A stretch of DNA of 64,000 nucleotides from Raja brachyura (Eukaryota), in assembly GCA_963514005.1 (NCBI GenBank), contig OY740792.1:15562001-15626000 (forward strand). The letters are read 5' to 3'. The notes under the pieces are model-generated. The model searched no databases. It was not told where the DNA came from and was given only the letters and a program-made list of their open reading frames with translations. How positions within the stretch are numbered: the stretch's first letter is position 1; every line of letters starts with the position of its first letter. A program made the translations under genes and the position numbers. Shown in pieces: positions 12,450 through 49,900 of this stretch.

Positions 12450-13566
12450 TCTGACTGACATCCACTATAAACCCACTGACTCCCATGGCTATCTAGACTA
12501 CACTTCTTCCCACCCTGCTTCCTGTAAGGACTCCATCCCCTACTCCCAATTCCTCTGTCTATGCCGCATCTGCTCCCAGGATGAGGTGTTCCACACCAGG
12601 GCATCGGAAATGTCCTCATTCTTCAGGAAATGGGGGTTCCCCTCCCCTACTATAGATGAGGCTCTCACCAGGGTCTCTTCAATACCCCGCAACACTGCTC
12701 TCTCCCCATCTCTCCCCCCCCCCCCCCCACACTTGGAACAAGGGCAGAGTCCCCCTAGTCTTCACGTTCCACCCCACTAGCCGTCACATACAACAAATAG
12801 TCCTGCATCGTTTTCGCCACCTCCAACATGACCCCACCACTCGCCACATCTTCCCATCTCTCCCCCCGTCTGCTTTCCGCAAAGGCCGCTCCCTCCGTAA
12901 CTCCCTGGTCAATTCATCCCGCACCACCCCCTCCCCGGGCACTTTCCCTTGCAACCGCAAGAGATACTCCATTTGTCGCTTTGCCTCCCCCCTTGACTCC
13001 ATTCAAGGACCCAAGCAGTCGTTCCAGGTGCGACAGAGGTTCACCTGCAACTCCTCCAACCTCATCTATTGCATCCGCCGCTCTAGATGTCAGCTGATCT
13101 ACATCGGTGAGACAAAGCGTAGGCTTGGCGATTGTTTCGCCAAACACCTCCGCTCGGTCCGCATTAACCAACCTGATCTCCCTGTGGCTCAGCACTTCAA
13201 CTCCCCCTCCCATTCCGAATCCGACCTTTCTGTCCTGGGCCTCCTCCATGGCCAGATTGAGCACCACCGGAAATTGGAGGAGCAGCACCTCATATTCCGC
13301 TTGGGCAGTCTGCACCCCAGCGGCTTGAACATTGACTTCTCCAATTTCCGGTAGCCCTTGCTGTCTCCTCTCCTCCCCTTCTCAGCTCTCCGTCAGCCCT
13401 GTGACTCCTCCTCTTCCTTTCTTCTTTCCGCCCCCCCCCCCCCCCACCACCTTACATCAGTCTGAAGAAGGGTTTCGGCTGCATAGATGCTGCCTCACCT
13501 GCTGAGTTTCTCCAGCACTTTTGTCTACCTTTTGATTTTCCAGCATCTGCAGTTCCTTCTTGAACA
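12450..13566 (+). mobile_element. Penelope-like element, 5'-truncated (RT thumb/linker, GIY-YIG endonuclease, terminal repeat)
   Basis: TDIHYKPTDSHGYLDYTSSHP and NLIYCIRRSRCQLIYIGETKRRLGDCFAKHLRSV...RKLEEQHLIFRLGSLHPSGLN; one frameshift in a poly-C tract. Confidence 0.93.
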
Positions 13567-13980
13567 CTTCTGGCACTAATGCTCCTTTCCACAAATAATC
13601 CCAGGCCTGAATGTTATTTGTGTCTTACTGCGTGTGGCACGGGCTACTCTTTGCTGGGGAAATGTGAACATGGTGCAATCATAAACCTATATATCCCAGG
13701 TTATAAGAGGGACAGAGCATCAACAGTTGGCCTTTATAAAACATCCTTGTATAACGTTGCCATATGCATTTCACGGAACTCGTTGGAGCTTTGTAGTTAT
13801 AATTAACAGAACCACATACAGTGTCCCAGCTGTGAAATGTTCCCTGGACTGAAAGGACAATCGGGTATCACGGAGAAACATACCCAACTGTAAGCCGGTG
13901 GAGGAAGACACTACATCTATTGTTTTCATTTTGTTATTATTCACATGCTGAACATTCAAATTCCGTTTCATTTAAAACAG

Positions 13981-14118
13981 GATCACTCTTCAGGTGAGCT
14001 GTCTAATTATGGTCTACACCCAGAAACACTGACTCAACTAATGCACCAGCCAACTATTGGAAAATCCTCCATAAAGCATATAGAAATGGACAACTACAAA
14101 TATACATGGAAGTTGTGA
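13981..14118 (+). CDS. DONSON: DONSON exon 10, coding part to stop TGA
   Basis: aaacag|GAT. DHSSGELSNYGLHPETLTQLMHQPTIGKSSIKHIEMDNYKYTWKL*, a typical DONSON C-terminus. Confidence 0.93.
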   Translation, partial: DHSSGELSNYGLHPETLTQLMHQPTIGKSSIKHIEMDNYKYTWKL

Positions 14119-15003: not shown

Positions 15004-16410
15004 GTTCTGTACCCACATCTACCTGCCTACTGTGCATTCTGCCATCTATTTGCATGGGGTCCTTCAGAGGGTTATGCTAGTCAAAACATGTAACCTTTTA
15101 CTATTAATATGTAGAAATCAGCTTTATCAAATAATGAAACTGATGCGATACAATTTCTAGATCAACTCCATAGTTTACTGGAATATTCGTGCTCTCCAAT
15201 TCACTATCAATGACAATGAGGTGGGTGGTTTAAGGTTTATACATCAAGATCTACTATATGGGAATTGTAGTTGCGTTATGTTAATTGACCTGGCACAGCA
15301 ATGTCTGAAAATGTAAATAAACTCTCGAGCAACAGTTAAGGTGGTTTTAGGTTTGTGTTACACTAATTAGAAATGTATTTTATCTAAATTTTAGCTGTGA
15401 TAAATACGACGTCCCAGACCTATGAGAATTAACTAGATACGACCTATTAACTGATAAAGCATAAGACATGGGCACATTTTAGTTTGTAGTTGTCTGCTTT
15501 TTGGTTTAACCATCAAACCTTTTGCAGAAGAAAAATGTAAAGCCATTGTAAATCTCAATGTAGTAAAAGATGTATTTTATCAGATTTTATTTTGCCAGAC
15601 TACATTCAACATTGGACAGGTATTTTGTTCAGAAGCTCTAAGATTTATAGGCAAAGTAATACTTTCAGAATTGATAATGTTATTGCACTTTCAGTATGCA
15701 CTGCCATTTTAATGTCTGATATGACTATTTATTAAGTATTAAATATACCAGTTGAGCCTTGTTCGAGTCTTTTCTTCAACTTGCACGTTTCGGCACTTTC
15801 TCACCTTGTTTCTACTTATCATCCAAATGTACAAACTAGTTATTTCCATTTCAACCGAACACATGTTTTGAATTTTATTTTTCTCATTGTTTTCACTGGC
15901 AAAGTGCTAAATGTGCATTGTTGTGAGCTGAGGTGGGTGGTTTAAGGTTTGGTTATGGCTGTAGCTGAGAGATAACAATGAGTTGACAGTATCATTAAGA
16001 ATCTGAGATTTAAAAATGTCACCCTTAAATGTCTACCCACATCCTGTATGTTACTGAATGTTTACCATTCACAGGGAAAGATGAAATACCAACCTAGCTT
16101 CCAACAATTTGGTTTCTTTTTTTTTCCATTTATATTCATTGAATGGAGGTCATGTGCAATAAATCCTGTCACTTTTTCACTGCCACTGCATAGACGCGTG
16201 CAATATTTCGCATAACCGAGCCCCGGCTGCTGATACAGCAAATACCAGCCCTTCTAGTCATGTGTGAGAAAACATTTTCTATTATGTGTACACCTTGATA
16301 TCTGAGAGTTTATAAACCCAGATTCTGTCTTGGATTTTGGTGCCTGTGACTAGACAATGAACTATGGTAATACCACTCTTTAGGGGAGTGAACAAAACCA
16401 GAGAGTAAGT

Positions 16411-16621
16411 GTAGGAAAGAACTGCAGATGCTGGTTTATATCGAAGGAAGACACAATGCTGGAGTAACTCAGCAAGACAGGCAGCATCTGTGGAGAAAAG
16501 GAATGGGTGAGATTTTGGGTCGAGACCCTTTGGACAGAATCGGTCTGAAGCAGGGACTCGACCCGAAGCGTCACCCATTACTTCGCACCCGAGATGCTGC
16601 CTGTCCCAGCATTTTGTGTCT
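16411..16621. mobile_element. Fold-back mini-element made of two head-to-head Penelope terminal-repeat halves, 14-bp TSD
   Basis: TSD accaga(g/a)agtaagt at 16397-16410 and 16622-16635. Degenerate hammerhead cores on both strands. Confidence 0.85.
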
Positions 16622-16762
16622 ACCAGAAAGTAAGTATTGGATGTCGTTCATAAAACTTCAATATTTCAGTAGTCATTTTCAAAATAATTTGCAAGGAAAT
16701 GCTAATATAATACATATTTATTTACAGAATCACTGAACAATTTTACAGTAGTGGGAGGTCAT

Positions 16763-18789: not shown

Positions 18790-19385
18790 CACATTGGTGA
18801 GGTCAGGCATCCATTTTGTTGAACACTTGCATTTATGGTCCACCAAGACCTGCTGGATCCTCTGGTTATTAACCACTTTCACTCCCATTCCCATACTGAC
18901 CTTTCTGTCCTGTGCCTCCTCCATTGCCTGAATGAGACCACATGCAATCTGGAGGAACAGCACCTCATATTCTACTTGGGGAGTTTACAACCCAACAGCA
19001 TGCACATTGAATTCTCCAATTTCAGGTAACTAACCTACAAACAATGGATCCCCCCTCCTCCTCCCCCCCCCCCCCCCCCCCCCCCGGTTTCTTCCCTCTG
19101 CCCCACTTGGATTTGTATCAATTTCTCCCTGGTCACCTTCTGCCTACATTTACAACTCTTCTATCCTATTTCACTTTTTTGTCTTTTCATCTCTGGACCT
19201 TCTCCAACCATCCTCCGATCAACCCTCCTTGCCTATATCCACCTATTACTTGCCAGGCTTTGTCCTACCTCCACCTCTCTTTCAGCTTTATCTCCATACA
19301 CCTGAATCAGCCTGAGGAAGGGTCTTGACCTGAAATGTCACCCATCCATGTACTCTAGAGTTACTCCAGCACTTTGTGTCTTTTT
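18790..19385 (+). mobile_element. Older Penelope-like element 3' fragment with terminal repeat
   Basis: HSHSHTDLSVL...LEEQHLIFYLGSLQPNSMHIEFSNFR, then CTGAGGA-A-GGGTCTTGACCT-GAAATGTC at 19312-19339. Confidence 0.85.
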
Positions 19386-20354: not shown

Positions 20355-20433
20355 ATTTGAAATATACCGAAGGTAGACAAAATTGCTGGAGAAACTCAGC
20401 GGGTGCGGCATCATCTATGGAGCGAAGGAAATA

Positions 20434-20468
20434 GGCAACGTTTCGGGCTAAAACCCTTCTTCAGACTG
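20434..20468 (-). ncRNA. Minimal type I hammerhead ribozyme motif (intact core), sense to SON pre-mRNA
   Basis: Minus strand reads cagt CTGAAGA A GGGT-TTTA-GCCC GAAA CGTT gcc. Activity not shown. Confidence 0.7.
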
Positions 20469-21543
20469 ATGCAGGGTGGGGAGGTGTGAAGAAGAAAGGA
20501 AGAGGAGGAGCCAGAGGGCTGAGGGAGAGCTGAGAAGGGGAGGAGACAGCAAGGGCTACCGGAAATTGGAAAGTCAATGTTCAGGCCACTGGGGTGCAGA
20601 CTGCCCAAGTGGAATATGAGGAGCTGCTCCTCCAATTTCCGGTGGTGCTCACTCTGGCCATGGACGAGGCCCAGGACAGAAAGGTCGGATTCGAAATGGG
20701 AGGGAGAGTTGAAGTGCTGAGCCACAGGGAGATCAGGTTGGTTAATGTGGACCGAGCGGATCAGCTGACATCTAGAGCAGCGGATGCAATAGATGAGGGT
20801 GGAGGAGGTGCAGGTGAACCTCTCTCGAACATGGAATGACTGCTTGGGTCCTTGAATGGAGTTAAGGGGGGAGATAATGCGACATGTGTAGCATCTCTTG
20901 CGGTTGCAAGGGAAAGTGCCTGGGGTGGTGCGAGTGGGAAGGGAAGAATTGAACAGGGTGTTACGGAGGGAGCGGTCTTTGCGGAAAGCAGAGGCAGGGG
21001 GGGAAGATGTGGCGAGTGTGGGGACACGTTAGAGGTGGCGAAAATGACGGAGAACTATTTGTTGTATGTGACGGCTAGTGGGGTGGAAGGTGAGGAATAG
21101 GGGGGCTTTGCCCTTCTGAGGGAGGGGATGGGGGGAGAGAGAGAGAGCAGTGTTGCGGGGTATTGCAGAGACCCTGGTAACCTCATCTATTGTAGGGGAG
21201 GGGAACCCTCGTTCCCTGAAGAATGAGGACATTTCCAATGCACTGGTGTGGATCATCCTGGGAACAGATGCGGCGTAGACGGAGGAATTGGGAGTAGGGG
21301 ATAGAGTCCTTACAGTTAACACGGTGGAAAGAAGTAGTCTAGATAGCCATGGGAGTCAGTGGGTTTATAGTGGATGTCGGTCAAAAGTCTATCACATGCG
21401 ATGGAGATAGTGAGATCAAGAAATGGTAGGGAAGTGTTGTAAATGGTCCAGGTTGGAGTGCCGGATGGAAGTTAGGGAAGTCTCCTCCCCATCTCAGCTC
21501 TCCCTCAGCCCTCTGGCTCCTCCTCTTCCTTTCTTCTTCCCAT

Positions 21544-21578
21544 CAGTCTGAAGAAGGGTTTCGGCCCGAAACGTTGCC
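21544..21578 (+). ncRNA. Minimal type I hammerhead ribozyme motif (intact core)
   Basis: cagt CTGAAGA A GGGT-TTCG-GCCC GAAA CGTT gcc; stem II has a UUCG loop; predicted cut after 21575. Confidence 0.75.
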
Positions 21579-21917
21579 TATTTTCTTCGCTCCATAGATG
21601 CTGCCGCACCCGCTGAGTTTCTCCAGCATTTTTGTCTACCATCGATTTTCCAGCATCTGCAGTTCCTTCTTGAAAATTTGAAATATACCACTTGGTTCCC
21701 CCATTCAAAGCACAGATATATGTTATGAATTGCTGTTTGAATAAAGACATGAATTTCACATCTCATTTTTATATTGCCAATATATCTCTAAGTAACTGGG
21801 ATAATAACCTAAGAGATTCAGATTTGCATTCACTCCATTGAGCAGGAATTATTGGAAATTAAACTGTCACGTACTAGATAAAAAGAGTTATAGAGTTAAC
21901 TCTTGCAAATAAGAGTT

Positions 21918-22021
21918 TAAGAAGGAACTGAAGAAGGGTTTTGGCCCGAAACGTTGCCCATTTCCTTCAGTTCATAGATCCTGCTGCACCCGCTTTCTCC
22001 AGCATTTTTGACTACCTTCTA
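21918..22021 (+). mobile_element. 104-bp solo Penelope terminal-repeat insertion with intact hammerhead core (21928-21955) and 13-bp TSD
   Basis: TSD gcaaataagagtt at 21905-21917 and 22022-22034. Core CTGAAGA A GGGT-TTTG-GCCC GAAA CGTT gcc. Confidence 0.88.
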
Positions 22022-22818
22022 GCAAATAAGAGTTACCTTGAGTACACCAGACTATAAGGTTTTTTAAATGTTTTGTCTTCTACAGATTAGTGCACTTTAC
22101 TGAGCAGGAATTAATGGAAATATGATATGAAGAGGACATTGTGATTCTGAAGCACGATATAAACAGATTGATTGATTGGGTGAAAACCTGGCAAGTGTCA
22201 GCTTAACATGGAGAAGTGACAGGTCCTGCACATGGGTAAGAGAAATCAAATGGCAGATTATTTAAATGGAAAGACAAGCAAATGAGTGAAATTCAGTGCA
22301 TGAATTACAAAAGGTTGTCAGGCAGGTTCAACGAGCAGTTGGAGTTTAAGAATATGTCATTTTGTGTGAGGCCACACCTAGAATACTATGCAGTTTTGGG
22401 TCTTAAAAAAATATTTTTGTGTGTTAAGCCCTTGTGAGGCATTCACAAACATTACCCTTTGTTTGCTGATCCATTCCCTCCCCCCATCAACATGCACAAT
22501 CTGAACACCACTCCCCACCAACAACAATCTTACCCAAAACCACCACACACAACTAGTTACAATTTCAGTATTCCCATTGCAATGCTCTCTCTGTATCAGG
22601 CGCACACATTGGAGAACAAATTATAAACTGACCACACATTTCTACCTATTTTTTGTGATAGATGAAAAATTGTGGACACCCGATTTATTTATCAACGTTT
22701 TGGCTTCAATCTTCATGATTAGAATAGAAAGCTAACATTAACGTTCTCAGAGAGATTATCACTTTTTTGATTCTGCTATATTAATGAGCAAAAGCCAAAA
22801 GGTAATGAGCAGCTTCAC

Positions 22819-29384: not shown

Positions 29385-32300
29385 AGGCCCAGGAGCTGTT
29401 GGAGCAAGAGGAGGAGTCTCCGGGCGTTGAGTTATAAAATCGAGCACGGGGCTTTGCTTCACAGAGGCCCAGGAGCCGTTGGAGCAAGAGGAGGAGTCTC
29501 CAAATCTGTAACGTTCCACACTTCAAAAGAAGTGTTCTGGTGGAAGCCGCTGATTAGTGGAAACGGACTGGAGGAAGCAGCTGATTGGGTGCAACCCCTG
29601 GTTTGCATTTCTGCTTTCTCGTTAAGGGTACAGTGAGTTAATGGTACAGCGAGTTAAAGGTACAGTGAGCTAAGGGTTCAGTGAGTAAAGGGTTCAGTGA
29701 GTAAAGGGTACAGTGAGCTAAGGGTACAGTGAGCTAAGGGTACAGTGAGCTAAGGGTACAGTGAGCTAAGGGTACATTGAGCTAAGGGTACAGTGAGCTA
29801 AGGGTACAGTGAGCTAAGGGTACAGTGCTTTTTAGTAAAGGTTAGTTTAAAGGATTAAGATTTTTATAGTGTGAGTGAGTTGATTTAATTTGGGGGCAAG
29901 CCATGTCATTTGAGATCGGCCCCATGGTTTGCTCATCCTGCAACATGTGGGTGATCAGGGATATTGTCGGTGTCCCTGGTAACCACGTTTGCAGGAAGCG
30001 TGTCCAGCTGCAGCTCCTGGTAGACCGCATTGAACGATTGGAGCTACGTACAGTGAGTTGGTCACACCGCAGGTAAAAGTTAAGTGGACAGAAAGGGAAC
30101 AGGTGACCATTAGCCAGCATAGCAGTAGGCAGGTAGTGCAGGAGTCCCCTGCGGTCATCTCCCTCCTAAACAGATATACCATTTTGGATACTGTTGGGGG
30201 ACATGGCTCATCAGGGGAAGGCAGCAGCAGCCAAGTTCATGGCACCATGGGTGGCTCTGCGGCACAGGAGGGGAGAAAAAAGAGCTGATGGGCTATAGTA
30301 ATAGGGGATTCAATTGGAATGGGAATAGATAGGCATTTCTGCAGCCGCAAACGAGACTCCAGAACGGTATGTTGCCTCCCTGGTGCAAGGGTCAGGGATG
30401 TCACTGAACGGCTGCAGAACATTCTGGAGGGGGAGGGTGAACAGCCAGCTGTCGTGGTGCATATTGGCACCAACAATATAGGTAAAAAACGGGATGAGGT
30501 CCTACAAGGCAAATTTAGGGAGCTTGGAGATAAACTTAAAAGTAGGACCTCAAAGGTAATAATCTCTGGATTACTACCAGTGCCACGTGCTAGTCAAAGT
30601 AGAAATAGGAGGATATTGCAGATGAATACGTGGCTTGAAAAATGGTGCAAGGGGAAGGGGGTCAAATTTCTCGGGCATTGGACCCAGTTCTGGGGGAGGT
30701 GGGACCAGTAGAAACAGGACAGTCTGCACCTGGGCCGGAATGGAACCAATGTCCTTGGGGGAGTGTTTGCTAGTGCTGTCAGGGAGGATTTAAACTAATG
30801 TGGCAGGGGGATGGGAGCATGAGCAGAGAGACAGAGGGGTGTAAAATGAGGGTAGAAACAATAGGTAGCAAGGTGAAAAGTAGAAGTGGCAGGCAAAAAA
30901 ACCCAGGGCAAAAATCAAAAAGGGCCACTTTTCAACATAATTGTATAAGGGGTAGGAGTGTTGTAAAAACAAGCCAGAAGGCTTTGTGTCTCAATGCAAG
31001 GAGCATTCATAATAAGGTGGATGAGTTGAATGTGCAGATAGTTATTAATGAATATGATATAGTTGGGATCACGGAGACATGGCTCCAGGGTGACCAAGGC
31101 TGGGAGCTGAACATCCAGGGATATTCAATATTCAGGAGGGATAGACAGAAAGGAAAAGGAGGTGGAGTAGCGCTGCTTGTTAGAGAGGAGACTAACGCAA
31201 TAGAAAGGAAGGACATTAGCTTGGAGGACGTGGAATCGATATGGGTAGAGTTGCAAAACACTAAGGGGCAGAAAACGCTAGTGGGAGTTGTGTACAGGCC
31301 ACCTAACAGTAGTAATGGAGTTAGGGATGGCAACAAACAGGAAATTAGAAATGCGTGCAACAAAGGTAAAACAGTTATAATGGGTGACTTCAATCCACAT
31401 ATAGTTTGGATGAATCAAATTGGCAGGGATGCTGAGGAAGAGGATTTCTTGGAATGTATGCGGGATAGTTGTCTAAACCAACATGTAGAGGAACCAACGA
31501 GAGAGCAGGCTATTCTAGACTGGGTATTGATTAATGAGGAAGGGTTAGTTAACAGTCTTCTTGTGCGTGGCCCCTTGGGCAAGAGTGACCATAATATGGT
31601 TGAGTTCTTCATTAGGATGGAGAGTGACATTGTTAATTCAGAAACAAGGGTTCTGAACTTAAAGAAAGGTAACTTTGAGGGTATGAGACGTGAATTGGCC
31701 AAGATAGACTGGCAAGTGATTCTTAAAGGGTTGACAGTGGATATGCAATGGAAGGCATTTAAAGACTGCATGGATGAACTACAACAATTGTTCATTCCAG
31801 TTTGGCAAAAGAATAAATCAGGGAAGGCAGTGCATCCGTGGATAACAAGGGAAATCAGGGATAGTATCAAAACAAAAGATGAAGCATACAAATTAGCCAG
31901 AAAAAGCAGCCTACCAGAGGACTGGGAGAAATTTAGAGTCCAGCAGAGGAGGACAAAGGGCTTAATTAGGAAAGGGAAAATAGATTATGAATGAAAACTG
32001 GCAGGGAACATAAAAACTGACTGCAAATTGTTTTATAGATATGTGAAGAGAAAAAAGGTTAGTTAAAACAAATGTAGGCCCCTTACAGTCAGAAACTGGT
32101 GAATTGATCATGGGGAACAAGGACATCGCAGACCAATTGAATAACTACTTTGGTTCTGTCTTCACTAAGGAAGACATAAATAATCTGCCGGAAATAACAG
32201 GGGACCGGGGGTCAAATGAGATGGAGCAACTGAGTGAAATCCAGGTTAGCCGGGAAGTGCTGTTAGGTAAATTGAATGGATTAAAGGCCGATAAATCCTC

Positions 32301-33862
32301 TGGGCCAGATAGGCTGCATCCCAGAGTACTTAAGGAAGTAGCCCCAGAAATAGTGGATGCATTAGTGATAATTTTTCAAAACTCTTTAGATTCTGGAGTA
32401 GTTCCTGAGGATTGGAGGGTAGCTAATGTAACCCCACTTTTTAAAAAGGGAGGGAGAGAAAAAACAGGGAATTACAGAGCAGTTAATCTAACATCGGTAG
32501 TGGAGGAAATGCTAGAGTCAGTTATTAAAGGTGGGATAGCAGCACATTTAGAAAGTGGTGAAATCATTGGACAAAGTCAGCATGGATTTATGAAAGGTAA
32601 ATAATGTCTGATGAATCTTGTAGAATTTATTGACGATGTAACTAGTAGAGTGGGTAAGGGAGAACCTGTGGATGTGTTATATCTGGACTTTCAGAAGGCT
32701 TTCGACAAGTTCCCACATAAGAGATTAGTATACAAACTTAAAGCACACGGTATTGGGGGTTCAGTATTGATGTGGATAGAGAACTGGCTGGCAGACAGAA
32801 AGCAAAGAGTAGGAGTAAACGGGTCATTTTCCGAATGGCAGGCAATGACTAGTAGGGTACCGCAAAGCTCAGTGCTGGGACCACAATATATATTAATGAT
32901 CTGGATGAGGGAATTGAATGCAACATCTCCAAGTTTGCGGATGACATGAAACTGGGGGGCAGTGTTAGCTGTGAGGAGGATGCTAGGAGGCTGCAAGGTG
33001 ACTTGGATAGGTTGGGTGAGTGGGCAAATGCATGGCAAATGCAGTATAATGTGGATAAATGTGAGGTTATCCACTTTGGTGGCAAAAACAGGAAAGTAGA
33101 CTATTATCTGAATGGTGGCCGATTAGGAAAAGGGGAGATGCAACGAGACCTGGGTGTCATGGTACACCAGTCGTTGAAAGCAGGCATGCAGGTGCAGCAG
33201 GCAGTGAAGAAAGCGAATGGTATGTTGGCATTCATAGCAAAAGGATTTGAGTACAAGAGCGGGGAGGTTCTACTGCAGTTGTACAGGATCTTGGTGAGGC
33301 CACACCTGGAGTATTGCGTACAATTTTGGTCTCCTAATCTGAGGAAAGACATTCTTGCCACAGAGGGAGTACAGAGAAGGTTCACCAGACTGATTCCTGG
33401 GATGGCAGGACTTCCATATGAAGAAAGACTGGATAGACTCAGCTTGTACTCGCTGGAATTTAGAAGATTAATGGGGGATCTTATAGAGACTTACAAAATT
33501 CTTAAGGGGTTGGACAGGTTAGATGCAGGAAGATTGTTCCTGATGTTGGGGATGTCCAGAACAAGGGGTCACAGTTTAAGGATAAGGGGAAGTCTTTTAG
33601 GACCGAGATGAGAAAATCATTTTTCACACAGAGAGTGGTGAATCTGTGGAATTCTCTGCCAGAGAAGGTAGTTGTGGCCAGTTCATTGGCTATATTTAAG
33701 AGGGAGTTAGATGTGGCCTTGTGGCTAAAGGGTTCAGGAGGTATGGAGAGAAGGCAGGTACAGGATACTGAGTTGGATGATCAGCCATGATCATATTGAA
33801 TGGCGGTGCAGGCTCGAAGGACTAAATGGCCTACTTCAGCACCTATTTTCTATGTTTCTATG
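29385..33862 (+). mobile_element. Near-full-length defective CR1 LINE (~4.5 kb), antisense in SON intron 7
   Basis: 5' UTR with repeats. ORF1 29903-30798 (CSSC...CRK zinc finger/leucine zipper, SGNH esterase IGDS/LPGA/GTNN/DSLH). ORF2 from 30798 (APE: NARS, GITETW, YRPP, MGDFN, SDH; RT: QHGF, YLDFQKAFD, FADD). Several stops and frameshifts. (TTTCTATG)2 tail. Confidence 0.96.
29623..29827 (+). repeat. 16-bp minisatellite (TAAGGGTACAGTGAGC) x ~13 in the CR1 5' UTR
   Basis: Direct tandem repeats with few substitutions and no spacers. Confidence 0.97.
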
Positions 33863-37336: not shown

Positions 37337-37818
37337 CTTAAGCTTGAAATCGCTTCACAGAAAGCAAATGGAGAAACTAGTTACCATTACACTGGAGTTA
37401 AAAAAAACTAACTGCAGGAGGAACTCAGTGGATCAAGCAGCATCTTTGGAGGGAAATGAACAGAAGACGTTTTGGATCAAGGCCCTTCCAAACTCTGGAA
37501 TTTCCAGCATCTGCAGTCCCTGGTGTCTACATCAAGTAAGTAACCTGGGATTCATCTTACACACAAGGACCTCAATGCGATGGTGTTGGATCAGTGACCT
37601 GCTCGTGAAAGAATTCCTGCCGTTCTTCCAACTGTGGCATGGAGAGCATTTCTGATGATCTGCACTGTGATATTCTCTCTTCACTGGAATATATTGCCCA
37701 GAGTTGGGATGAACCCCCAGCCTCCACAATATTTCCAATCTTTCATTTCTGAAAGAGGACAGTCATTAATCTATTTTTCGATTGAGTCAGACCTAGCCGA
37801 TGACCATATCCCACATAC

Positions 37819-46124: not shown

Positions 46125-46928
46125 TTAGCTCACTCAACATCAACAAGACCAAGGAACTAATTGTGACTTCGGAAAGGGGAAGCTGGGAGACCATGCACCA
46201 GTTTTCATCAGCGGGTTGCTGGTAGAGTTAGCTGCTTTGGTTGCCTGGTTATTAATATTGCCAATGACCTGTCCTGGGCCCGGCACATGTGTGATCATGA
46301 ACGAGATGCACCAGCGCCTCTACTTAGAAGTTTAAAGAGATTTGGCGTGTCTCCAAATGCTCTAACAAACCTCCACAGATGCACTGTAGAAATATCCTGA
46401 CAAGTTGCACATCGGCTTCATATGGCAATTTCAATGCACTGAAACTCCAAAGGCTGCAGAGACTGGTATACTGAACTTGGTGCATCACAGGCACAACCCT
46501 CCCCTCCATGAAAAGCACCTCAAGATAGCATCTATTGTCAAGACTCCCAACATCTGGGCCATGTCCTCTTCACAGAGATACCAACAGGCAAGAGGGTCAA
46601 AAGCCCAAAGTTGTACAGCAGTACACCAGGTTCAGGAACAGCTACTTTCCTACAGATATCGGGTTCTTGAACCAACTCGCACAACCTTACAACAACCTCA
46701 AAAACAGAGCACTACAGAATATCTCATGCGCTTTAATGGACTTAGGTTTTTTTCTGATTATGTTGTGCACTCTTCTCCCCACCCCCATCTTCTTTCTTTT
46801 AGAATGGTGTGATTTATGTACAATTTGTTTGTGTTTGCCAATGTGCCTTTGATGATGCTGCAAGCATGATTTTCACTGTACCTGTACCTCACCGTACTTG
46901 TGCACACGACAATAAACTCTACTTGACC
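46125..46928 (+). mobile_element. Degenerate Rex1/Babar-like LINE 3' fragment
   Basis: LNINKTKELIV-like and TRFRNSYFP motifs. Tail gctgcaagcatgattttcactgtacc...aataaactc is also present at about 26500-26593. Confidence 0.7.
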
Positions 46929-49900
46929 TGAATTGTATTGAAATTATCTCAGACATGCAAGAAGTGAAAGGCTATGTATAATTTTATTCTTTCCAAACCA
47001 GAATTTTATAAAAAAACAAAAAAGGATCTGAATAGGAAAATAAAAAATACAGATGCCAGAAATCTGAGATAAACACAAAGTGTCGGATATACTCAGGAGT
47101 TCAGTCAGCATCTGTGGAAAAAGAAAATGCATTAATGATTTGTCAATAATCATTTATCAGAATTTCATCAGTTTTGATGAAAAATCATCAATCTGAAACT
47201 TTAAATTTATTTCCTTACGGATGATGAAGGAAGGTTTTTATTCAGTTCCCTGCTCGGTCAAATTTGTTGAAAAGGTCAAAAACTGTGGGAATAGAATGAA
47301 ACTTGCCATAAATGTGTTTCATGCTTAAATGGAATATTGCATCTAGCATTCAGACATGAAATGCCACAAAATTCAACCAAAATAGTCTGGTCTCAGACAC
47401 ATTTGAATGAAAGAACAATAACATGCTGGAACTGCTCTGGTCGGGCAACATCTATGCACAGGGAATAGTACACATCTCACGTTGAAGGCAATTCATAGAT
47501 CTGAAACATTAACTTGTTTTGCTCTCCAGATGCCACATAACCCATTGTAAATTTCCATCTTTTTCTGTTTATAATTCTAGATTGCCAGCATTTTGTTTTT
47601 CAAACATGTTTAAGTGCGTTGGTATGTTTAGAATACGTTTTTATGTATCAGGTAGATGGGCATCAACGTCATTAAAAATTGTAATTCTTTCAAAATGAAT
47701 TAATACTTTGATAACCATTCGTCGCATTTATTTCTTCTCTACCGCAAAGAGAATGATGCCAGCTGAAGTTGATGTTCCATGAACATATTGATAAATTAGA
47801 CCCAAATTAGAATATGCTTACTGATTTATGAAGCTTAAAATTGTAAGCCCAAGAAAACTTGAATCATTCACACAAGACAAGATGTAAAGGGCTTCTCAGG
47901 TGGGAAATTGACTGACACAAGGAATGGAATGGGTAGGGAAGAGTTTAATATATGCTTGGATTTCAAGCACATAATCATATCCTAATGCCCAGATGAGATT
48001 TTCCTAGCAATTGATTGTTAAATATTGGAAAAAGGTTAATCAGTTTGAAATTGTGGCAGATATTCTGTAACTGATGTGAAAGTACACCAGGTTCAGGAAC
48101 AGCTACTTTCCTACAGCTATCGGGTTCTTGAACCAACTCGCACAACCACATTCTTCAACTTCTGAAATTGAATAGTCCAAGCTTTGGTGATTTATTTATG
48201 AAGAACATTTGTTGATATGGCATTCAGCAGGATGTTGATGTGGTACACAGCAGGATGTTCCACAAACACACCCTAGATTATAGTTAATCTCACAATAAAA
48301 TGACAAAAGTGGCATAACAATTGGCAATTACCTCAGCAAAGCCATTATCCACTACTGACTATTGTCCATGCACTTTAAATCATGCTGTGTGTAAAGCATT
48401 GGACTTATAAGCAGAGGCAGCAATATGGTGAAGATCATGCCTAGGTTTAGAATGTGGAGCTATGGCACAACAGGAGTCAGGCTTTTATTTATTTTTTAAA
48501 AGGAGTTAAGGGGAATTTTTTAAATGGGGCAAAGAAAGTGTTATTTTAATGAATAAAATACTTTATAGAATTAATAAATTGCTTTATGTAAATTTCTACT
48601 GTGTAAGCCAAACATACTTCAAATGAACTCAATCATACCCCTTGGTGCACAATGAAAGCATGATACTAAAGCCACTTTTAAAAAAGATCAAAGGAAATAC
48701 AAATTTTGCGAAGCGCAGCAGTTTAAAAATAATATCTTAAAAAGGAATACAGTCTACAATTTAAAATTCTTTATTATTAAATAACGTGGTATATTTCTGA
48801 AACAGGTTGAAGAGGGTAGCATTGTTTAAATACAACTTCAGACTCTCATAGTTGAGTAAATGCTTGGTATGGTATATTTTATTGAAGGCAGATTAACTGC
48901 AAAATTGGCTGGGTCAAAAAAGTGAATCTCAACAGAAGGTGATGTTTTAGTCTTAAAATAAAAAGTGGGCAAACATGGACATTGGTCAAACAAACAAGAA
49001 ATCCCACTGTAGATTTGATCTTCATATGTGCTCTACACTGAATTGACAAATCTTAGCTGGAACAAAATAGGGTCTAGCATTTCTAGACTCCTCACAGATA
49101 ATTCTAGACTCTATACTGATTGGGATTGGGCTGTGGAACAACAATGGCCGTTTCTGGTCTCAAACGTATATATACCCATGACTGCTGACCTGTGGACCAT
49201 ATACCAACCTGGAACAGCACTTTTGAAGAGGTGGGGTAGGAGTGATGAGAAAATTAAAACTATATTCACAAGATATTAGTGTAATAATTTTATTACAGAG
49301 ATGACAGCAAATGATGTTCTGGAATGAAAGACACACAAAACTAAAAACTAGCAGTATCAAACAATCACTAAAATGTATTACATATTGAAGAATATGCAAA
49401 AATTATTTTTTTCCTCCAGCAGCAGGAATAAAGCACAAACACACACCTGGAAACTATAGATCATATCATGTAATGTTTCTAGCTGAAGCAATATGTCTTT
49501 ATCAGAAACATGAAATTAATTCTTCTGATGTTAGCTGAAGTGCAATGCCACGTTTTCTGCATCAACATTGGTGCGCAATGCAATGTCTTACAAACAGGGA
49601 GGAATCTACACCGATCCTTCCTGGGAAACGGGGCAACTTCAACTGTTGTGCTTGGAATAAGCTACTTCTACTTATTCCATTCTAAATGGGAAGTAATGAA
49701 TAAACATCTGAAGAAGGGTTCAGTTTTGGACGATTTTTCCGACCTTGAGGGAAACATGCCTGAAGTAGTCGATCCATTGCTCCGTCATAATAGAAGGAGT
49801 ACTTTCAGAAATGTAAATAACGAGTATCAGGTGCTTCAGGTGGACTTCTCTGAAACTACACACCCCAGTATCAAAATGAATTTCAATGTGCTCACTGGAA

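Follow-up and report, generated by a model that had tools for sequence, protein, structure and literature searches.

The dominant repeat of this locus carries a motif that resembles a self-cleaving ribozyme. The question raised is whether the motif is a true hammerhead and, if so, whether its cut decides where the copies of the repeat begin and end. In the present study, we analysed the whole 64,000-nucleotide stretch of skate DNA, called the window here, and followed its repeat through the genome. A single Penelope-like insertion occupies 20369-21675 on the minus strand of the window; it is 5'-truncated, carries an inverted terminal repeat on that side, and lies within the SON intron between the exons at 22790 and 18284. 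It is bounded by a target-site duplication of 14 bp (left copy 20355-20368, right copy 21676-21689, both on the plus strand). The insertion consists of a 3' pseudo-LTR without a tail (20369-20547, minus strand, 87% to the inverted copy), the 3' part of a broken ORF (20570-21453, minus strand) and an inverted pseudo-LTR with a tail of about 35 nt (21481-21675, plus strand, tail at about 21641-21675). The ORF part corresponds to residues 883-1200 of an intact relative, in three frames, and contains the end of the reverse transcriptase (RT), a Cys linker and a GIY-YIG nuclease. The same layout, with an inverted 5' repeat and a tail on one end, has been described in print for Penelope-like elements (10.1101/2021.04.23.441226; PMC3846280).

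In full-length elements the order is hammerhead, ORF with RT and GIY-YIG, hammerhead. Among the 16 long-frame loci examined, two direct hammerheads about 4 kb apart flank the ORF in L063 (at 2411 and 6395) and in L078, and in these two loci the motif is thus found in both pseudo-LTRs of an element with RT and GIY-YIG. The locus L062 has an open frame of 1204 residues, with a long Pro/Ser-rich N-terminal part and with RT and GIY-YIG matches that are weak in Pfam, below its cut-off. The motifs DKG and YIDD, a CX4CXXC linker and the nuclease motif are present in the ORF, and its homologues named from sharks and rays are 65-74% identical. The element therefore has what defines the EN+ Penelope-like group, namely a single ORF with RT plus a GIY-YIG nuclease at its C-terminus (Pfam matches below cut-off), pseudo-LTRs, an inverted 5' copy, an optional tail of 30-40 nt and a target duplication. 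The first-pass annotation had called the repeat Penelope, and the ORF domains, the pseudo-LTR layout and the target duplication bear it out. The element likely belongs to the Neptune clade, an assignment made from the CX2-5CXXC linker between RT and nuclease and from loci bearing the published Acropora Neptune motif; a linker finger is also found in Nematis. The copies at L062:2839-6453, L063:2411-6490 and L078 are full-length and very young, with terminal repeats 99% identical in L063, which suggests recent activity. In the window, older nuclease-end fragments with 58-82% protein identity lie at 1350-1985, 6914-7163 and 18865-19023. The 3' UTRs differ between subfamilies (about 105 vs 245 nt) ahead of a common hammerhead and tail.

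Judged from their sequence, the motifs are minimal type I hammerheads of a Penelope-like element, of the kind described in 2014. The catalytic boxes CUGANGA, GAAA and UH are in place, the extra base between A9 and G10.1 is A in 95% of copies, and the pair G10.1-C11.1 is G-C in 13 of 13 aligned sequences. There is no monomeric helix III, and positions 15.2-16.2 are palindromic, with CG in 91 of 168 copies and mostly CpG decay products in the others. The extra A after A9, which had been put forward as tolerated, falls within the published range, as an extra base there belongs to the published consensus (text and Fig. S3 of PMC4209133). The size of about 2 bp given for helix I was right, but it is not unusual, since helices I of 2 bp are printed for Culex, D. 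virilis and Oikopleura in the same paper (PMC4209133).

Evidence on the structure came from related elements at 80 loci from marine metagenomes, 14 of which hold 17 motifs, whereas the reversed sequences hold none. In an alignment of 13 sequences (3 from skate and 10 from metagenomes), 94% of cells are paired and 25 cells are two-sided; none of 500 shuffles came up to this, and slid controls reached at most 48%; 10 of the 13 sequences had entered the set through a descriptor for which pairing is required. When this filter was left out, core words were found after the ORF in 22 of 34 loci and both helices in 13 of those 22, the matches being mostly one coral-like family that matches the printed Acropora Neptune motif. 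Helices I and II thus covary across lineages in the pairing-selected set, and the structure is therefore likely under selection in active lineages. Within the skate genome the picture is different. No two-sided helix change was seen there, only one-sided ones (the stem II pair is U-A in 138 and U-G in 17 of 168 copies), and copies lose CpG core bases, with G12 changed in 32% of 168. One-sided variants and CpG decay that includes G12 are as in unselected DNA. Hence, the stem II and helix I variants that had been described as compatible are real but not compensatory, and covariation speaks for the structure across related elements, while variation within the genome is weak evidence. Overall, the minimal-hammerhead identity stands on the fit to the published consensus and on covariation across related elements.

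Other checks on the motif were less informative. Conservation of the core among subfamilies gave weak evidence: the subfamily majorities differ at 0 of 7 CUGANGA positions and at 16 of 61 downstream positions, in copies that were core-selected and grouped on three differing sites. The Rfam search gave no match at gathering score and no hammerhead among four weak matches, which is explained by the lack of helix III in minimal motifs. The folding stability of the whole repeat was not above that of shuffles (z -0.7 and -1.6), and the naked RNA is predicted to misfold, with a probability of at most 0.05 for stem II and at most 0.003 for helix I. In the predicted short RNA (L063:2408-2540) the end of the tail pairs with the core, with probability 0.88 in the young subfamily, and this pairing is absent in two of five copies folded. 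Such core-tail pairing is a possible off switch in these models.

Within the window, the relaxed motif was matched 6 times, against 0 in each of 100 shuffles, and a family profile was matched 19 times, against 0 in the reversed 780-kb control. Three sites, at 20437-20464 on the minus strand and at 21548-21575 and 21928-21955 on the plus strand, had been claimed as intact; the core is indeed intact in all three, but the last one lacks the 5' strand of helix I. The minimal hammerhead at 20435-20466 (minus strand, core 20464-20437, helix I of 2 bp, predicted cut after 20437) lies in the 3' pseudo-LTR of the insertion and is the sole intact window copy that is sense in a host pre-mRNA, in the SON intron. 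The hammerhead at 21546-21577 (plus strand, core 21548-21575, helix I of 2 bp) is antisense to SON. The third core belongs to a separate mini-copy of 92 nt at 21928-22019 (plus strand, antisense to SON), which has its own target-site duplication of 13 bp (left 21905-21917, right 22022-22034, plus strand). Because this copy begins at C3 and the 5' strand of helix I is gone, only the copies at 20437-20464 and 21548-21575 pass the full descriptor (core, stem II, palindrome and helix I of at least 2 bp), which found nothing in the reversed control. In the subfamily to which the three intact copies belong, GAAA is covered by a competing hairpin of 6 bp (21561-21575).

The near-intact core at 6776-6803 (minus strand) has a broken palindrome, is antisense in a DONSON intron and forms the end of a longer truncated copy at about 6711-7163, while that at 19312-19339 (plus strand), with its first helix I pair mismatched, is antisense in a SON intron. 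A truncated copy of the same subfamily at 12451-13569 (plus strand) carries a 25-nt deletion in its hammerhead at 13462. Two decayed short copies at 16407-16635, arranged head to head, lie about 130-360 nt beyond the last SON coding exon and probably sit in the SON 3' UTR. A decayed core at 2189-2216 (plus strand) has lost G12, and its stem II is broken. Profile search or direct comparison placed more decayed copies at 11816 and 34777 (plus strand) and at 37493, 38217 and 43353 (minus strand); the site at 11817 was assigned to the family by direct comparison only, with 12 mismatches in 34 positions. The positions given earlier for intact, near-intact and degenerate sites all check, and the degenerate sites are members of the family.

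Genome-wide, 132,051 intact cores were counted, against 140 in the control (2.7 Gb; about 49 per Mb), and the exact family motif occurs 75,514 times, against 0 in the reversed sequence. By extrapolation, the 168 recognisable copies in 844 kb correspond to about half a million in the genome and the 19 full motifs in 780 kb to about 66,000. One lineage accounts for all 19 of these descriptor matches, and the 100 intact-core matches listed were all of the same lineage as judged by eye. Of 143,495 genomic candidates for the end of the ORF, at least 150 were scored matches. These counts confirm the very large population of ribozyme-derived motifs that had been predicted from the window. Published numbers, obtained with descriptors that differ from ours, are about 9,000 for Xenopus and 4,000 for coelacanth (PMC4209133) and 126,247 canonical motifs for axolotl (PMC7229834). 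The skate genome may rank with those genomes known to be most densely packed with hammerhead cores, a point we advance only tentatively, as a part of the broader reading of a capped 5' end and uncut RNA given below.

Such a load raises the possibility that intronic copies cut the pre-mRNA of their host genes. Matches to skate proteins, 74-98% identical apart from a merged match that is lower, locate the exons of both genes: SON runs from 59533 to 16766 on the minus strand, DONSON occupies 2-14115 on the plus strand, and the two lie tail to tail. The DNA thus comes from a skate or a near relation, and we take both to be essential genes. The first-pass annotation had placed a load of ribozymes inside essential genes; copies are indeed present in both, but the statement was too strong, as a single window copy is both intact and sense and it has no intact sense partner. 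An effect on the host through cutting of SON or DONSON would be favoured by that one copy in the SON intron and by the number of full motifs in the genome. We consider it very improbable, since SON offers no such partner, the inverted copy at a distance of 1.1 kb in the same intron would pair with the sense copy (predicted duplex -318 kcal/mol), the subfamily has the competing hairpin over GAAA, and CpG core bases including G12 are freely lost. The copy at 20437-20464 is therefore predicted, from these models, to be inert in SON pre-mRNA. The window also holds a near-complete CR1/L2-type LINE at 30289-33800 (plus strand), with a GDSL-esterase-like ORF1 and an ORF2 of AP endonuclease and RT, many shorter pieces of this LINE type, and a tandem repeat of 64-bp period and a 67-bp near-exact direct repeat (29621-29827 and 46620-48147).

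The second part of the question was addressed by mapping the ends of copies. Positions are numbered with C3 as 0, so that the first product base after the predicted cut is +28, and copies were anchored downstream of the cut site. The 3' ends of young copies fall at +83 to +96 in 95 of 139 and at +123 to +133 in 26 of 139, so that young copies stop about 93 or about 129 nt beyond C3. In roughly 70% of young copies the start lies at or within the hammerhead; these are pieces of 90-130 nt. The remaining 30% or so continue upstream, an estimate weighted by the 25,329 copies with C at -17, of which 63 of 100 listed continue, and the 30,640 copies without it, of which about 2 of 100 listed do. Among 168 copies sampled at random regardless of age, 34 continue upstream when matched to the reference and up to 60 when judged by their likeness to each other. 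Among 130 short copies, mostly from the first 5 Mb of one contig and of one young subfamily, 106 begin at -8 to +4, 21 at +5 to +25 and 3 at +26 to +30, with the mode at -3 and -2 (20 copies each) on an initiator-like motif. Only 3 of the 130 (about 2%) begin at the cut site, and with a more distal anchor none of 30 random copies began at +26 to +31. A target duplication of at least 9 nt is present in 27 of the 130. These start positions indicate that the RNA templates were likely uncut, and hence that the ribozyme probably does not set the ends of copies.

In the 2014 proposal the hammerhead processes the RNA by cutting and ligation into a circular template, and reading of the re-ligated junction by the RT would hide the cut. 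This could still hold for the 30% of longer copies; the structure is kept across lineages, the two tandem motifs of full-length elements could dimerise, and dimers cut weakly in vitro according to PMC4209133. We nevertheless regard it as distinctly improbable, because a circle has no end at -3 and leaves the cliff of 5' ends there without explanation, while linear cut RNA should end at +28, where almost no copy does.

Immediately 5' of the core lies the initiator-like sequence YCAGT, and bases -5 to +1 fit the initiator consensus YYANWYY, with A at -3. In 23 of the 40 copies starting at -3 or -2 a G precedes the junction (11.3 expected, p = 1e-4, by a test chosen post hoc), against 16 of 53 at other junctions (14.7 expected); a separate set of 100 listed copies shows a modest excess, with G in 36, A in 46 and T in 18. 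An extra G is described as a cap signature for LINE-1 (PMC4859970), and an internal promoter with an initiator is described for Penelope of D. virilis (PMC2377424). Contigs of another organism contain joints that return to these positions, in many cases by way of a G. Molecule ends did not pile up anywhere in RNA reads of another species and three contig sets, which is a weak test with a fragmented poly(A) library. Over the ORF (window 20500-21470 and L063:2546-2655), RNA reads of another organism show a strand bias of 2-5 fold, in the same sense at both places and relative to the library only. The sequence upstream of the core also resembles a 3' splice site; a splice acceptor made of the pyrimidine tract and CAG was set aside, as starts do not spike at -1 (10 of 130) and the copies have no upstream exon in common.

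The same 5' ends could arise if the RNA started further upstream and the RT stalled or switched template near the core, at a protein footprint or a core-tail fold, with the hammerhead itself unchanged. The core-tail pairing predicted above would provide such a fold, and junctions of the head-to-head or fold-back kind are frequent: in 40 of 157 short copies, element sequence adjoins the 5' end, inverted in 32 of them. In D. virilis, moreover, the start precedes the motif by about 125 nt (start at 371 in PMC2377424, C3 at 496 in Table S1 of PMC4209133). Against this, the ends show a sharp upstream cliff with a downstream tail, as from run-off, their mode falls on the initiator-like motif, the excess of G is confined to -3 and -2, and the tail pairing is missing from two of the five folded copies, so that we find stalling unlikely. 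Five young copies (L276, L277, L314 and others) start at the AACGT palindrome at +22, and three of them are fold-back inversions centred there, which hints that the palindrome pairs during copying.

The short copies may also be thought of as a SINE-like family that propagates itself, each copy being re-copied from its own start and RT start sites. The predicted start is indeed present in them, together with both sites of RT initiation, and they outnumber long copies by about 7 to 3. On the other hand, the same variants occur in the short and long copies listed, the 5' ends are ragged, and the flanks are unique, with no flank carried over; no targeting of microsatellites was evident in the flanks seen. 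We judge this idea, which is compatible with the reading below, to be quite unlikely.

Taken together, we consider it fairly probable that a minimal type I hammerhead sits in the pseudo-LTR and that most young copies are short pieces made by reverse transcription of an uncut RNA, probably capped, whose 5' end would lie 2-3 nt ahead of the core. Transcription would start at the YCAGT just 5' of the core, leaving room for a helix I of 2-3 bp only, and the RT of the element would start internally at the tail sites. From the tail of the 5' repeat it would run off the end of the RNA after 90-130 nt and give a short copy; such a piece would be inserted with a duplication of 10-17 bp, often as two pieces head to head. 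A start in the 3' repeat would give the longer truncated copies. The hammerhead, presumably selected in the active lineage, would cut only as a dimer or with a protein of the element, and the cut would act at a step other than the making of insertion ends. For PAc, in vitro, uncut RNA was the main insertion substrate and the hammerhead needed protein (PMC11167929). Once inserted, copies are likely inert fossils, those in SON and DONSON among them, so intronic copies probably matter little for host biology. A broader proposal, which we consider somewhat less likely than not, is that the hammerhead forms the very 5' end of a capped transcript, that tens of thousands of run-off copies record insertion of uncut RNA, and that the cut clips a capped leader of 30 nt and thereby acts as a protein-gated decapping switch on the mRNA of the element.

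Compared with known systems, the motif belongs to an established class, met here in a host group new to it, and what is added here is the record of copy ends and the copy number. Literature searches (repeat databases being outside their scope) turned up no publication that treats Penelope hammerheads of skates or copies ending at the motif, and the word Penelope is absent from the main text of the little skate genome paper. The minimal hammerheads that Cervera and De la Pena (2014, PMC4209133) described in metazoan Penelope-like elements share with ours the CUGANGA-H box, the G10.1-C11.1 pair, the 4-bp stem II, the GAAA-CG-UH palindrome, the short helix I, the presence in both pseudo-LTRs and the many solo copies. 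The closest motif printed there is Neptune of Acropora digitifera; Table S1 and Fig. S3 list no cartilaginous fish, and the text as consulted gives no map of copy ends, which have been mapped here for the skate. With the Neptune clade, as described in 10.1101/2021.04.23.441226, the element has in common the C-terminal GIY-YIG, the CX4CXXC linker, DKG, partial tandems, the inverted 5' copy and the tail on one end. Non-LTR retrozymes are likewise non-coding hammerhead repeats tied to Penelope termini in the accounts of PMC7229834 and the preprint 10.64898/2026.07.22.740005, which reports them in one chondrichthyan genome. These are tandem units of 170-400 nt cut at the ribozyme, whereas the skate pieces are dispersed, 90-130 nt long, solo or head to head, with ends off the cut site. 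Retrozyme identity was therefore set aside, as head-to-tail units bounded by the cut site were not found among these dispersed copies.

The role of Penelope hammerheads is stated to be open in 10.1101/2021.04.23.441226 and in PMC11167929. Here the genome supplies a natural archive of insertion ends on a very large scale, together with near-identical young full-length copies with an open frame. These ends argue against a cut that defines the template and suggest a start site by which helix I is kept at 2 bp. The nearest parallel in behaviour is PAc, the Poseidon element of Anolis (PMC11167929). As in the skate, it has two internal RT start sites around a tail of 30-40 nt, and likened to the skate are also the extension of both strands, the insertion of uncut RNA and the absence of RNA reads ending at the cut site. 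PAc belongs to another clade, and its ORF starts inside the hammerhead, whereas that of the skate element starts about 160 nt after C3. The evidence for PAc comes from in vitro work and that for the skate element from the ends of its genomic copies.
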